Assembly: GCA_963716985.1 (NCBI GenBank)
Contig: OY970323.1
Location: 1,472,001 to 1,536,000, forward strand
Length of the DNA stretch: 64,000 nucleotides
Direction of reading: 5' to 3'
Source of the DNA: an uncultured bacterium
GTDB lineage: Bacteria; Chlamydiota; Chlamydiia; Chlamydiales; SM23-39
Shown in pieces: positions 7,558 through 49,052 of the stretch. Made by a program: the position numbers and the translations under genes. Numbering within the stretch: position 1 is the stretch's first letter; every line of letters starts with the position of its first letter. Below the pieces are notes generated by a model. It saw nothing but the letters and a program-made list of their open reading frames with translations, ran no database searches and was not told where the DNA came from.

Positions 7558-7680
7558 ACCTCCCTCGCCTAAAGGCGAAGGATTCCTGCTTCACAGCTCC
7601 CGGCAACCCGGGCAGCTCCACAGGCTTTAGACCGACGCACCGACAGCCCAATTTTTTATATTGATTGCAGCATTCAAATC
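7554..7680 (-). ncRNA. IS200/IS605 right end / TnpB reRNA (omegaRNA) scaffold; 5' boundary approximate
   Basis: Minus strand ...GCCTGTGGAG...GAAGCAGGAATCCTTCGCCTTTAGGCGAGGGAGGTTCAA directly after the tnpB 3' end. Confidence 0.75.
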
Positions 7681-8019
7681 TCTGTCTATCCTTTGTCCGC
7701 ATGCGCAGATATATTCTCTTTGTCCCAGGTCCATTTTTTGTCTGCGACCACATTTTGAACAAAGACGTGTGCTTCCTAAGAGACTTGAAACTTCGTATAG
7801 TGTTTTGCCATATTCAAGAGCTTTGTTTTTAAGACACTCTAAAAACATTCCCCATCCAACATCAAGGACAAGCTCGTTACTTTGATCAAAGAGAGAGAGC
7901 TGTTTCTCTTCTCTTTTTCCCAAGCCTCTTTTTTTTGAGCCAAACCCCAATTGAAGATCCATCTCTTGGCTCCGGCAAACTGAGCAAAAAAAATCTCACT
8001 CGTTTTTTGGGGCAACAGA
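7627..8019 (-). pseudogene. tnpB: tnpB relic (internal deletion plus frameshift)
   Basis: N-terminal LLPQ...FAGAKRWIFNWGL fragment joined to DVGWGMF..LKNKA..GK, CSKCG/CACG zinc ribbon and DRDLNAAINI. Confidence 0.85.
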
Positions 8020-8051
8020 AGGACTGAAAAATTTCGTGCAATTTCCCTGGG

Positions 8052-8148
8052 AAGTATAAGAAGATGAGAGGACATTTTAGAAGAGCCATATACTGGCTGG
8101 GAAGAATTGCGAAGAGCAATCCTCAGCTGTATGAGCACTGGAGAATGG
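8052..8148 (+). pseudogene. Group II intron RT/maturase C-terminal fragment
   Basis: Translates KYKKMRGHFRRAIYWLGRIAKSNPQLYEHW, resembling the KYK...RA..WL..I...P.LF.HW maturase tail. Confidence 0.6.
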
Positions 8149-17773: not shown

Positions 17774-18397
17774 ATGTTTGGAATTTTTTTAGATTCGGAA
17801 ACCAATGGACTGAACCCTAAAAATCATAGGCTTTTGGAAATTGCTTATAAAATCGTTGATCTTTCCTCCGGAAAGCTAACGGAAAGCTATCATGCCATTC
17901 TCCTACAGCCAGCGGAGGTTTGGCAGAAGAGCGACCCTTCCAGCCTTCAAATTAATGGTTTTACTCAAGAGCTCCTTCAACAGAGGGGAAGTGCCGAAGA
18001 GAACGTAAAAAAGGAGATCCTTCGCTCCTTTCAAAAGATTCCCATCGGCCGAAAAAATGCCGTTTTCATCTGCCAAAACCCCTCTTTTGACCGTGCCTTT
18101 TTCTCCCAACTGATCGATCCGGATCTTCAAGAAAGCCTTTCCTGGCCCTATCATTGGCTGGATTTGGCTTCGATGTTTTGGGCCATTCGGATGGCTCGAG
18201 TCAAAAGAGACAAAAAAGAAAAATATCCCTGGGACATCGGTCTTTCTAAAGATCAAATTGCTACCTTTTACCATCTTCCCAAAGAAGCCTCTCCCCACCG
18301 CGCCATGAATGGCGTCGATCATCTGTTGTCTTGCTACCTGGCAATTGTTGGGTTTCCGGATCTCCCGGATAGACTGCAATCTTTCAAATCAACATAA
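17774..18397 (+). CDS. DEDDh 3'-5' exonuclease
   Basis: FLDSETNGL, QNPSFDRAF, HRAMNGV. Confidence 0.85.
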   Translation: MFGIFLDSETNGLNPKNHRLLEIAYKIVDLSSGKLTESYHAILLQPAEVWQKSDPSSLQINGFTQELLQQRGSAEENVKKEILRSFQKIPIGRKNAVFICQNPSFDRAFFSQLIDPDLQESLSWPYHWLDLASMFWAIRMARVKRDKKEKYPWDIGLSKDQIATFYHLPKEASPHRAMNGVDHLLSCYLAIVGFPDLPDRLQSFKST

Positions 18398-18576
18398 GAA
18401 GCGGCCGCCTCCTCTTCCCTCTAATGGATTTCTGCGCTGTCAATAAAGTGGGAGGTTCTCTTTTGCCGCTCCATAAATTCCCATTGGCTCTCATGGGAAG
18501 AGCGAAAAAGAAAAAGCGATCCTTTGCATTAAAGTTTCTCTATTTATATGATAGGATGAGAAATGAGTAATTTTTC

Positions 18577-19383
18577 ATGAGCTTTTTTCAACTAATCGTT
18601 CCCTTTATAGAAATTGCGATTATCTCTATTGCCTTGAACTATCTATTGTCTTTTTTTTGGCATACCAAGTCAATGGATCTCGTTTGGGGATTTTTTGCCT
18701 TCATCCTACTTTTTGCCCTCTCCGGATGGCTCCACTTGCCCGTTCTGCATAAGATCATGTTTTTAATTGCCAACACGGCAATGATTGCCGTGCTTATCAT
18801 CTTTCAGCCCGAACTCCGCGTTGCCCTCTCTAAGCTTTCCTTGAAAGGCAAACGCTACAAAGAAATCACCGAGTTTGACAAATTTCTCGATAGCCTTGCC
18901 AACTCTACTTATCGTTTGGCTGAAAAAAAAACCGGAGCATTGATTGTTCTAGAAAATGAAGACTCCTTAGAAGAATATGCGCAAAAAGCAGTGATGCTTC
19001 ATGCGGTTTTTTCTTCGGAATTATTAGAAACTATCTTTGCCTCCAACACTCCTCTCCATGACGGAGCTTTGATCATCCGAGAAAACATGGTTTTAGCTGC
19101 GGCTGTCATTCTGCCCCTGGCAGAAGATAGTTCACAGCTAAGCAAATCCATGGGCACACGCCATCGGGCAGCGCTGGGATTGAGCCATGCGACCGATGCT
19201 CTCGTGATCGTCATCTCCGAAGAAACGGGAAAGGTATCGATCGCACGCGACGGAATTATAACTCGGGGTATAAAAATCGATCGATTTAAAGGCATTATTC
19301 GCAGCATTTTCAATCCACCGAATCGCGTACAAACAAAATTTCATTTGCGTGAATGGTTTCAACAGTCAACCGCCCCTCCCTAA
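18577..19383 (+). CDS. dacA: Diadenylate cyclase DacA/CdaA; last codons (STAPP*) derive from the inserted element
   Basis: 3 TM segments, PLHDGA and GTRHRAALG motifs. Confidence 0.95.
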   Translation: MSFFQLIVPFIEIAIISIALNYLLSFFWHTKSMDLVWGFFAFILLFALSGWLHLPVLHKIMFLIANTAMIAVLIIFQPELRVALSKLSLKGKRYKEITEFDKFLDSLANSTYRLAEKKTGALIVLENEDSLEEYAQKAVMLHAVFSSELLETIFASNTPLHDGALIIRENMVLAAAVILPLAEDSSQLSKSMGTRHRAALGLSHATDALVIVISEETGKVSIARDGIITRGIKIDRFKGIIRSIFNPPNRVQTKFHLREWFQQSTAPP

Positions 19384-19620
19384 AGGGAGAGGTAGAATTA
19401 AGCCTGAAGTTGACCAGCTTTAGTCTTAAGGCAACTTGAGACTACGTTAGGAGCGAATAGAATATATAGGCACCTTGGAATGCCGCCTCAGTTCCAAGCT
19501 CTGCGGTTAGCAGTTAAACCAAGCGTACAGGTTAAACCAGTGCTGTTAACATGGTAAACCGCTCCATAACTTTGGCGAGGGGAACGTTACCCGGGAAACC
19601 GGAGATTGCAGGTAACTGGT
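19365..19620 (+). ncRNA. IscB omegaRNA / HEARO RNA scaffold
   Basis: Ordered motifs GTCAAC..hairpin..GTTGACCAG, ACTACGTT, GGCACCTTGGAATG..CCTCAGTTCCAAGCTCTGCGG, GTTAAAC, CAGTG, AAACC..TAACTTTGGCGAGG..ACGTTACC. Confidence 0.85.
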
Positions 19621-19717
19621 AGGGGGGAGCAATCCCCCCGCTTTTAAGTTTAACAATAAAGGAGCAGCGCTTCCCCCCACCCCTAAAGGGATGGGTTTTT
19701 CGCGCTGTTAAAATAGG
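19365..19717 (+). mobile_element. Non-autonomous IS200/IS605 (IscB-type) element without a protein gene
   Basis: Starts GTCAAC; subterminal CCCTAAAGGGA hairpins at both ends; no target duplication; removal recreates CAA CAA TGA overlapping the ybbR ATG. Confidence 0.85.
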
Positions 19718-20932
19718 ATGAAAGATCTTCTCAAAAGAGTCTTTTTTGAACATTGGCAAAGGAAAACCATTTCTCTCTTCTTGGCTGTGATTACGTGGTT
19801 TCTCGTCCATCATTCTATGACATCGACCAAAACATTGACCGAGATCCAGGTGAAAGTCATCAATCTGCCCCCAAACAAAACAATTGAAGGGCTGAGCCAA
19901 AGTAATATCATGAACAATCGCATCTCCCTCACCTTGATGGGCAGCAAAAATGCGATCGATGAACTAACTGCCAAGGATCTGGAGGTCATTATTGACGCTT
20001 CGAATAAAGGAGAAGAATGGATTGCGTCCATCTCTAAGAAAAATCTCATTTGCTTCAATCCCGATATTGACATCATGCAGAGTATTCATCGAGTGGACCA
20101 TGAAGATTTCTTCATCAAACTCTCGCCGCTCGCAACATCTAAGATCCCCGTCTATCTCACACCGCCAGAAGGAGAACCACCGCTGGGATATGAATTTTTG
20201 AATGTTTGGCCAAACGAGCTCTTTATCACCCTTAGCGGTCCGGAAAAAACCATCCAAGAACTAAAAAATCTAGGGATTTCTTTGGCCTTCAATTTGGATA
20301 ATGTGTCCAGGCAAGAATTGAACGCTCTTCGCAAGGATAATCCCCACGAAGTCATCAGCTATTCGGTCCCCGCTTCCTGGAAACTTATCGATATCCATTC
20401 CATTTCACCGACCCCCCTCCCAATCGACGATCCCAATAGCTCGCAACTTCGCATCAATTTTGTTCAAAAGGAGATGTTTCCCCTTGGCGTTCCTCTTCCG
20501 ATCCATCTTTTTTGCGCCGCCACAACTCTTTCTTCTTCCGATTCCCCCATAAATCTTAGCGAAAACAAAGGCGTGGTCGAAGAAAAAAATGGTGTCTTTT
20601 TCTACACCGCTCCACTTTTTGTCCGCGGCGTGAACCGTTCTCTTCTCGAGTTCATTAAAAATCGACTCGAACTTATTATTTTTCCCTCCTCCGGAACGTT
20701 TCGTTGGAGCATCGAACTGCAAGGCATCGAAGAGCTTGCGGAAGAGTATGCCGGGCAAGAAGAAAAAAAGCAGCTCCCTAACAATGCCTGTCCGGAAGAG
20801 TATTATATAGACCAATTTCAAAAATATTTGCGCCTGATCCGCTTCTACCAATCCGATGAGGAAGAATTACAACTGCGAATCGAATGCAAAGACAAAAAGA
20901 TTCTCGTCACTCCTAAAAAAGCACATTCCTAA
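19718..20932 (+). CDS. ybbR: YbbR/CdaR-like regulator of diadenylate cyclase
   Basis: N-terminal W.RK.ISL.LA...W anchor; directly downstream of dacA as in other chlamydiae. Confidence 0.85.
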   Translation: MKDLLKRVFFEHWQRKTISLFLAVITWFLVHHSMTSTKTLTEIQVKVINLPPNKTIEGLSQSNIMNNRISLTLMGSKNAIDELTAKDLEVIIDASNKGEEWIASISKKNLICFNPDIDIMQSIHRVDHEDFFIKLSPLATSKIPVYLTPPEGEPPLGYEFLNVWPNELFITLSGPEKTIQELKNLGISLAFNLDNVSRQELNALRKDNPHEVISYSVPASWKLIDIHSISPTPLPIDDPNSSQLRINFVQKEMFPLGVPLPIHLFCAATTLSSSDSPINLSENKGVVEEKNGVFFYTAPLFVRGVNRSLLEFIKNRLELIIFPSSGTFRWSIELQGIEELAEEYAGQEEKKQLPNNACPEEYYIDQFQKYLRLIRFYQSDEEELQLRIECKDKKILVTPKKAHS

Positions 20933-25507: not shown

Positions 25508-27159
25508 TGTTAGCGTTTTATTGAAATGTCCTCTTTTTGCGTTTTATTGAAATGTCCGCATTTAGAGGAATAGCAACATTGTTACTTCTTTATAAGAATA
25601 ATTTTAACATTTCTTTATTAAAAAATCCAGGTCTTTTCAAGGGGAGAGCGCGAGAGGGTTTCCCTCTCGCCTCCCTCTTTAAATGATTATCTAGAGCCCA
25701 ACCGAAGGGCGGGAGCAAAGGTGCTCGGCAATTTCCCCTCCTCCCTTATTCAAACTGAGGGACTCTTTTAGCAAGCGAGCTTATGTTTATTTGAAAAGCC
25801 TCTGGGTCCTCGCTTCCAAGGATGTCGACGACTTGGGCGATAACGGCAGCGCTCTTTTCGTTCAGCCAACTTCACTATCAATTCTTTTGCACTAACCACT
25901 TCTGTTTGTGCTTGCATTTTGTGGTGTGGTACTGCTGTGAGTTGTTTACCTCGATATTCGATGAAAACAACTCCGTCTTTTGTCTCCAAAACGGTAACCT
26001 CGGCATTTCTCAGAACGTATTCGTGACAAGGTGCTATCACTTGATAAATCACATTGTCGTATTGTAGAGTTAGATTTTTGGACAATCTGCGATTGGCCTT
26101 GAGGCAAAATATCTTGTCTAGGTTGTATGAGGGTAATAAGGGTTTATGCGCGTTGCTCGGATCTTTCGGTGCTTTGGCGAATTTTTGATTAAACTTGAGT
26201 AGAAATGATGGTAAAAATGCATTTGCAGCCTCGATGTCGCAGATCTTGGCTATACGCATCGCTTTGATCAATCGATTCTGAAAGTCCCGATTGCGCCTTT
26301 CAACGCGCCCTTTTGCCTGTGGTGAATTGGCGCAGATCAGTGTTATGTCCAGCTCTTCCATGGCTCTGCCGAATTGAGTTCTTCCATCTCCAGTTAAAGC
26401 GCCTTCATGGTTCACTCGAAAAACACTATGTTTGTCCGGATAAAACGCCTCTGGTCTACCATGCTTTTCAATGTATTCTCGGGTTGCCTGGAAGTAGTCA
26501 AATGTATTTTCAGATTTCACAAATTTCAAATGCATTGTCTTACTCGTTGCATCATCGATGAATACCAGGAGAGTGCATCGCGGTCCCCGGCCTTCGAACC
26601 AGTCGTGCTCCGAGCCGTCGAGCTGAATGAGCTCGCCCATTTTTGATCGTCTCTGTCTCAATGGATGTACTTTCAATTCCCGGATTTCATTTGGATGCCA
26701 CAGGCCATTTTCGATCATCACTCTACGCACTGCGCTAACCGAAAATTTCGCCGCTCCGCTTTCAATCAAATACTCATGGGCCAGGGTGGGACCAAAATCG
26801 CGATGGTCTTCCTGCTTGAAGAACTCTAAAATTTGAGCCTTTTTTTCTTGAGAAAGCCGGCGATTGCCTGGAACTCCCACTTTCCTGGAAACGATCCCTT
26901 TTGGGCCTTCAACCCTCAATCTCTTCAATAAACGCCTAAACTGCCTGGGACTTATTCCTAAACTCCGGGCGCCTTTTGATTGCTTTAACCGGCCTTCTTT
27001 GACAGCTGTAAAAACTTCTAATCTCGTTAATTCCCTGAAACTCATTGACATACGCTCCTCCATTTGATCGCCTCCTCATTGGTAATCAACAACTTGTGAT
27101 TACCAGAAAGAGGACATTTCTAAAAAACGGAAAGCGGACATTTTAAAAAAACGCTAATA
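25508..27159 (-). mobile_element. IS1202-type (ISNCY, IS481-related) insertion sequence
   Basis: Ends TGTTAGCGTTTT / TATTAGCGTTTT with doubled ..AAATGTCC subterminal repeats; 15-bp duplication CATTATGTTTGGAAG at 25493-25507 and 27160-27174. Confidence 0.88.
25768..27063 (-). CDS. ISNCY/IS1202 DDE transposase
   Basis: FGPTLAHEYL, GELIQLDGSEHDWFE, IDDAT, YPDKHSVF, SPQAKGRVER, HPW tail. Confidence 0.93.
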   Translation of the reverse strand: MEERMSMSFRELTRLEVFTAVKEGRLKQSKGARSLGISPRQFRRLLKRLRVEGPKGIVSRKVGVPGNRRLSQEKKAQILEFFKQEDHRDFGPTLAHEYLIESGAAKFSVSAVRRVMIENGLWHPNEIRELKVHPLRQRRSKMGELIQLDGSEHDWFEGRGPRCTLLVFIDDATSKTMHLKFVKSENTFDYFQATREYIEKHGRPEAFYPDKHSVFRVNHEGALTGDGRTQFGRAMEELDITLICANSPQAKGRVERRNRDFQNRLIKAMRIAKICDIEAANAFLPSFLLKFNQKFAKAPKDPSNAHKPLLPSYNLDKIFCLKANRRLSKNLTLQYDNVIYQVIAPCHEYVLRNAEVTVLETKDGVVFIEYRGKQLTAVPHHKMQAQTEVVSAKELIVKLAERKERCRYRPSRRHPWKRGPRGFSNKHKLAC

Positions 27160-48812: not shown

Positions 48813-49052
48813 GTCTTAAAATTACCATTTTTTGGCTATTTTAACTACCTATTTCAGCCAAATTTTGGCGAAAATAGGTATGCTTTTCAGCCAAATTTCA
48901 AGACATTAAAGAGATAGGTACCTTATATTTAGCATTTTGCGACGAAATGCAAAAAATTTTTATGATGACGAGCGAGAACACCACCAGCCTCGCGCCGGTG
49001 GATGAAAGCTCGCCATCTCACGAAATCTTCCGTTAAAAGTTCCTTTCTCTCT

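Follow-up and report, generated by a model that had tools for sequence, protein, structure and literature searches.

What separates dacA from ybbR in this chlamydial genome, and how can two genes that overlap in most relatives both be read with 353 bp between them? The window, that is, the whole stretch of 64,000 nucleotides analysed here, contains dacA (cdaA; 18577..19383, + strand), which encodes a diadenylate cyclase of 268 aa (TIGR00159 (CdaA), 193.4 bits; cut-off 188.8). It is followed by an intact ybbR (cdaR; 19718..20932, + strand), which encodes 404 aa, matches PF07949 and is 62% identical to its orthologue in a same-genus relative (genome G001; the genome under study is G000). The DNA between them probably derives from an IscB transposon, of which it would be a non-autonomous mini form with a short terminator-like hairpin in place of iscB. 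In line with the mechanism of the family, a Y1 TnpA acting in trans would have inserted the single-stranded DNA beside TTCAT (ATGAA in the sense direction).

Identity and structure of the element

An earlier note on this DNA described a stand-alone IscB omegaRNA element, and the segment 19365..19717 (+ strand, 353 bp, inserted at N|ATGA) has been confirmed as a gene-less element of the IscB type (ISC, IS200/IS605). Its scaffold at 19365..19590 (+ strand) matches the full Rfam model RF02033 (HEARO, 1–211) with 119.6 bits, above the gathering score of 83 (E 3.9e-24), and the covariance-model check thus bore out the note's identification. No open reading frame of at least 60 aa was found on the sense strand within 19365–19717 and iscB is absent from it; therefore, the element was classed as a gene-less (PATE-like) derivative and not as a full ISC. 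Subterminal hairpins with a CCCTAAAGGGA core are present at both ends, as is one copy each of a 24-nt repeat (19370–19393 and 19673–19696, 79% identity), and terminal inverted repeats are absent. The boundaries that the note had drawn are exact. The first base of the scaffold is also that of the element, and the ATG of ybbR (19718) directly follows the element's last base.

In the preprint account of Meers et al. (bioRxiv 10.1101/2023.03.14.532601), the guide is external to the element and the TAM of GstIscB is TTCAT. By this rule, the predicted guide segment (19344..19364, + strand) is host sequence, namely the 3' end of dacA lying 5' of the scaffold. The subterminal hairpin of the IS right end, which is the omegaRNA 5' end (19373..19392, + strand), contains the TAA that ends dacA. 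A GC-rich hairpin with a GCAA loop and a short T run (19622..19645, + strand) is terminator-like and stands at the place of iscB in intact elements. The ATGAA behind the element (19718..19722, + strand) is at once the TnpA target (TTCAT on the transposed strand), the predicted IscB TAM and the start codon of ybbR.

ISC transposons insert at N|ATGA without target duplication according to the main text of Kapitonov, Makarova and Koonin (2016, PMC4810608). The ISC1-1_MA, ISC2-1_HM and ISC2-1_MS elements of that text resemble the window element in their 5'-GTCA end, subterminal hairpins, insertion 5' of ATGA without duplication and mobilisation in trans; unlike them, the window element has no iscB and carries the terminator-like hairpin instead. 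ISGst5 and the PATE-like minis of Geobacillus stearothermophilus, as the preprint presents them, share TTCAT/ATGAA, the outside guide, the dependence on host transcription and gene-less minis served in trans, whereas the window element has a chlamydial host, a mutated right-end guide and no intact cognate TnpA that could be found. The stand-alone form of RF02033, as treated in part of Hirano et al. (2022, PMC9581776), also gives a full-length model match without an adjoining nuclease gene; in the window, however, the second stem of the scaffold is shortened, and the terminator-like hairpin and a complete IS left end follow. The element may accordingly be seen as an ordinary member of a described transposon family, notable in that most copies in the genome lie on start codons and perhaps carry their own ribosome-binding site. 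It extends the set of stand-alone omegaRNA mini transposons by one from a chlamydial lineage, and is directly testable, since guide and TAM can be inferred and a compact IscB matches it. The primary paper on the stand-alone omegaRNA form is reportedly that of Altae-Tran in 2021.

Inside the omegaRNA, a promoter-like TTGAGA-16-TAGAAT (19436–19463, + strand) was also observed, with TATAAT at the same place in one iscB-bearing copy. It could drive iscB and is not above chance in the promoter scan.

The empty site at the dacA-ybbR junction

Among 41 genomes searched, dacA was located in 38, and 30 loci were taken for comparison of the junctions. Of the 29 loci from relatives, 24 have a ybbR start codon (18 ATG, 6 GTG) that overlaps the stop of dacA, and in 4 the start is offset from that overlap by -15 to +11 nt. 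The junction parse covered 28 of the 29 relatives (L043 was left out); no long dacA-ybbR spacer occurs among these 28, and the element is thus absent from all of them. The locus of G001 represents the empty site: both flanks match and are joined directly, and dacA ends in WFKQ* with its TGA overlapping the ybbR ATG. Comparison of the filled locus with it revealed no target duplication, indicating that the insertion took the place of an ATGA overlap. The empty site reconstructed in the earlier note is thus supported by G001, and the overlap that it had expected at the junctions of relatives by 24 of the 29.

The target motif at this locus was the overlap of dacA stop and ybbR start, and both reading frames survive the insertion. 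The dacA product now ends in WFQQSTAPP*, its last five codons (STAPP) and its stop, the TAA at 19381–19383 inside the 5' hairpin, being supplied by the element as had been proposed; dacA of the relatives stops five codons earlier. The five extra residues fall well beyond the catalytic domain of DacA (110–226). The locus would represent a natural uncoupling of dacA from ybbR.

That a repeat copy was mis-joined into the operon during assembly is scarcely credible. The element is a multi-copy repeat, and one contig that bridges a junction differs at 10 positions inside it. Nevertheless, the N|ATGA junctions are exact and the window copy carries private mutations against every sibling. Besides, the left junction is bridged by one public-run contig (19253–19403, 0 differences) and the right junction by another (19569–19772, the contig with the 10 differences), both from low-depth runs of two studies, one run of which may be the assembly's own source. 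The joint of an empty allele was not found in the contigs of 4 of the 12 public runs (depth about 2–5), a sample from which absence does not follow.

Upstream of dacA, the stop of an exonuclease gene is overlapped by another 3' end of this element family, in decayed form (18391–18447, + strand; E 1.7e-5). This end is followed by GTGGG instead of ATGA, and G001 has unrelated sequence there.

Accumulation of copies on start codons

A profile of the last 70 nt of the element gave 24 matches in the genome, of which 23 were kept (one partial match, E 0.87, was dropped). These 3' ends are followed by ATGA in 22 of 23 cases and by ATGAA in 19, although nine of them, chosen because ATGA follows, had served as seeds of the profile. 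The motif is therefore tested by the remaining 14 alone, of which 13 precede ATGA and 10 ATGAA. The search for sibling elements followed by ATGAA was thus productive, and the earlier reading of ATGAA as target and TAM fits these ends as well as the published N|ATGA target of ISC and the TTCAT TAM of GstIscB.

An open reading frame of at least 75 codons is opened by 18 of the 19 ATGAA-followed ends, in keeping with the claim that start codons are tolerated landing sites. Start-like sites make up 523 of all 7252 genomic ATGAA sites, 593 of the 1660 outside genes (binomial p 1e-7 for the element ends) and 384 of the 654 between co-oriented genes (p 6e-4 for the element ends); the gene starts were taken from a simple purpose-made caller (1690 genes and 83% coding), with which the number of intergenic sites is probably too high. 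Pfam families are matched by 15 of the 19 downstream proteins, including S6, adenylate kinase and RuvC, and the match runs from the first residues in S6, RuvC, a short-chain dehydrogenase and a glycosyltransferase.

Outside this genome, landing follows the same trend more loosely. ATGA follows all 16 ends in family relatives, where eight open long reading frames, three run off the contig and five open short ones, and in other families of the order ATGAA follows 6 of 6 ends, with long frames at 3. In other phyla, long frames occur at 21 of 29 hand-anchored ends (80 loci) compared with 130 of 706 flank ATGA sites, the anchors having been picked after viewing and the kin among them not being independent. 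L090 and L099, both unique anchors, and the duplicate L113 were dropped for matching an iscB start and not an element end, and L085 was too short to score.

This pattern fits better with filtering by selection than with true targeting of start codons. Copies would gather there because the target contains ATG, insertions within genes would be purged and the element would need transcription by the host. A bias for co-oriented upstream genes, and PATE-like elements encoding omegaRNAs, are both described in the preprint of Meers et al. The words 'start codon' have 0 occurrences in the main text of PMC4810608, and no statement on start-codon landing or a built-in initiation signal was found in the main texts covered, including PMC4810608, PMC13565253, PMC9755519 and the Meers preprint, so an earlier description is possible.

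Rescue of the stop codon as an adaptation was rejected: in 8 of 13 5' ends, the frame required at an ATGA overlap reaches a stop after 5 codons, which is weak because the copies are related and, of any three frames, one has to stop first. Remnants with a 3' end only (11 of 22 aligned ends) outnumber those with a 5' end only (about 4) in G000, an excess that would be expected if the ATG-side end were kept by selection.

A candidate split ribosome-binding site for ybbR

Since the insertion removes the overlap of dacA stop and ybbR start, translational coupling would have been lost. The Shine-Dalgarno sequence at the empty site is only weak, as expected under coupling, and an SD-like word stands in the displaced host sequence of 4 of 9 two-ended copies. 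In none of these nine was a canonical Shine-Dalgarno sequence found within the last 16 nt of the element. Initiation of ybbR now probably depends on element sequence, most likely on AAGGAG (19659..19664, + strand), a candidate Shine-Dalgarno word which the outer stem would bring near the ATG. This word lies at the 5' foot of the outer stem of the IS left end (19664..19708, + strand), a stem of 7 bp (19664–19670 / 19702–19708) that surrounds the TnpA hairpin (19676–19695), and the ATG stands 9 nt beyond the 3' foot of this stem.

Across 44 ends, GGAG lies at least 40 nt upstream in 39, and the distance from stem to ATG is 7–10 nt. Column by column, GGAG is conserved in 42, 40, 42 and 43 of the 44, and the stem beside it covaries through compensatory changes; one copy without the inner TnpA hairpin still has both GGAG and outer stem. 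In a sister IS605 (target ATAAA), the GGAG word is absent from three ends, a control which consists of a single family. Other IS605 left ends were searched in 300 genomes of the order, yielding only two more copies, both in this genome, and five weak matches elsewhere. Taken together, the arrangement of GGAG, stem and ATG suggests a split ribosome-binding site. Against this, other unpaired columns are equally conserved, and part of GGAG is able to pair with the 3' arm of the stem. In the split sites of phage T4 genes 25 and 38, as they appear in part of PMC3014915, a stem likewise brings an SD-like word and AUG within about 10 nt; unlike in T4, the stem of the window element is a transposon end that encloses about 45 nt, and its function is that of a candidate only.

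If the split site is real, it explains how a transposon may be seated cheaply between the leader and the start codon of housekeeping genes. The end that binds the transposase would then double as a translation signal, providing a route for mobile DNA to rewrite bacterial leaders. A wider reading, to which we give somewhat less than even weight, is that ATGA-targeting IscB elements are start-codon parasites shaped for gene starts, with a stop in the 5' hairpin for an overlapping upstream gene, a guide taken from the host leader and a portable split ribosome-binding site at the 3' end, and that leftover 3' ends are kept by the host. Were this so, leftover 3' ends would be the initiation regions of about 1% of genes, those of ribosomal protein S6, adenylate kinase and ybbR among them.

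In Moorena, IscB elements (L057, L064, L068–L071, L076, L081, L086, L087 and L089) carry GGAGG seven bases before the target ATG. This is the canonical Shine-Dalgarno spacing, yet the word is able to pair within the terminal stem. The downstream frames include what we take to be glutaredoxin-like and catalase-like starts.

The terminator-like hairpin and c-di-AMP

Derivation from an IscB transposon does not account for the presence of a terminator-like hairpin on the sense strand before ybbR. The same hairpin precedes the S6 gene, and therefore read-through or an unrecognised promoter is likely for ybbR. The promoter scan found three promoter-like sites where 1.7 were expected, and none downstream of the hairpin. 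A promoter for ybbR inside the element was considered and rejected; its sole match in the element (19436–19463) lies upstream of the hairpin, and the count is near chance.

An effect of the insertion on c-di-AMP is conceivable by analogy with Chlamydia trachomatis, and the sense-strand hairpin is the part most likely to cause any such effect. Passages of PMC12422730 describe dacA-ybbR of C. trachomatis as an operon, and its authors suggest there that YbbR is limiting and that the balance matters. On these grounds, together with the removal of an overlap kept in 24 of 29 relatives and the addition of a terminator-like hairpin, the insertion could have been domesticated as a regulator, kept for uncoupling YbbR from DacA or lowering it relative to DacA and thereby retuning c-di-AMP and development. 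We find this highly improbable. About 20 unrelated genes have an element of the same type in front of them, which makes a special link to the operon unnecessary, and all 28 parsed relatives do without the insertion. The evolution of ybbR is also at odds with such a role, as its lineage-specific excess of changes is at most slight and non-significant (e.g. 38 vs 33). More of these changes fall in G000 with 18 of 25 outgroups, which are non-independent. Relaxed selection on ybbR gave no clear signal in lineage-specific changes, and the gene is of full length.

IscB in trans and mobility of the window copy

Eleven HEARO matches, 9 of them above the cut-off, are found in the 2.07-Mb genome. Two precede intact iscB genes of 442 aa (NF040563, 434.5 and 437.7 bits; cut-off 175), whose nearest relative, in a Rhabdochlamydiaceae assembly, is 69% identical. 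Taken with the gene content, this relative suggests that the host is an environmental chlamydia. Both IscBs retain the words PLMP, IDPG, VETVRFD, IDHI and HWIDA, which we assign to the PLMP, RuvC and HNH motifs. Aligned with those of the two intact elements, the omegaRNA in the window is identical at 248 of 257 positions in one case and 240 of 252 in the other (about 95%). The proposal that IscB is available in trans is borne out by these two genes; the wider search for iscB and tnpA advised by the earlier note succeeded for iscB, whereas related tnpA was found only in split form. At the DNA level, 15 of 103 family genomes contain matches to the element. Within its own genome, the window copy is one of a subfamily of minis, about 350 bp long, that carry the GC-rich hairpin and T run in place of iscB. 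Covariation of the hairpin extends over 8 ends here and 4 in two other genomes, and the one iscB-bearing end examined has no such hairpin; rows L001 and L003, in the wrong orientation, were left out of the sibling alignment.

With two intact IscBs and omegaRNAs that are about 95% identical, it is plausible, as judged from the sequences, that the window omegaRNA acts in trans with the genome's IscB. Transcription from the dacA promoter would yield an RNA with the dacA 3' end as guide; either IscB, once loaded with it, could cleave an empty allele and thereby bring the insertion back. Whether the copy is today an active selfish unit, still excised by TnpA and restored by IscB with its own omegaRNA, is a different matter, and we hold this to be unlikely. 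Stand-alone omegaRNAs working with IscB are cited in part of PMC9581776, and the covarying hairpin kept in the minis suggests selection on a discrete RNA, as would befit such a unit. Nevertheless, no site of guide plus ATGAA was found in the genome at 12 nt with 1 mismatch, 16 nt with 3 or 20 nt with 5, and the ends and the transposase tell against it as well.

In IS608, each hairpin is preceded on its 5' side by a DNA guide of four bases that pairs with the site of cleavage, as described in part of PMC5934647. The family end consensus fits this pattern, with CAAG for TGAC and GAAA for TCAT, but the window copy has TCTA at the right-end TnpA DNA guide position (19393..19396, - strand) and a longer A run at the left end. 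Of 13 sibling 5' ends, 8 carry CAAG, among them those of both iscB elements, as does the related IS605 of the genome. The right-end change also shortens the second omegaRNA stem, a 4-nt loss. Of four PF01797 (Y1 TnpA) matches in the genome, two are pieces of one tnpA split over two frames, in an IS605 with related ends, and the other two are copies of an element with different end hairpins; no intact compatible Y1 TnpA was found in the genome. Because its right-end guide is mutated and the only related TnpA found is split, the window copy is probably immobile. Loss of mobility is not certain, since right-end TEM changes were tolerated in the experiments that the Meers preprint reports. In the IscB-derivative reading that we prefer, the cycle of excision and restoration is probably idle now and the copy is probably a fixed passenger.

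Other transposon remains were observed in the genome. The IS605 at G000:C1:54980-56584 (L177) combines a TnpB frame (about 380 aa) with a split tnpA. In architecture and right-end motifs (TTGAC, CAAG), its ends agree with those of the IscB elements, its target being TTTAT, and its family is the likely former mobiliser of IscB elements. Two identical Y1 tnpA copies are located at G000:C1:757416 and 1970077 (L014, L015), and their 5' part abuts what is presumably the 3' end of a group II intron. Within the window, an isolated left end of the IS605/TnpB family with a TTTAT target (48957–49014) has no adjoining transposase ORF, and a fragmented tnpB remnant (7627–8119, - strand; PF07282 match at 7657–7854) lies beside a 5S rRNA gene. 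A transposase-like ORF of 431 aa with HTH domains (25768–27063, - strand) shares its N-terminus with an ORF at G000:C1:1017353.
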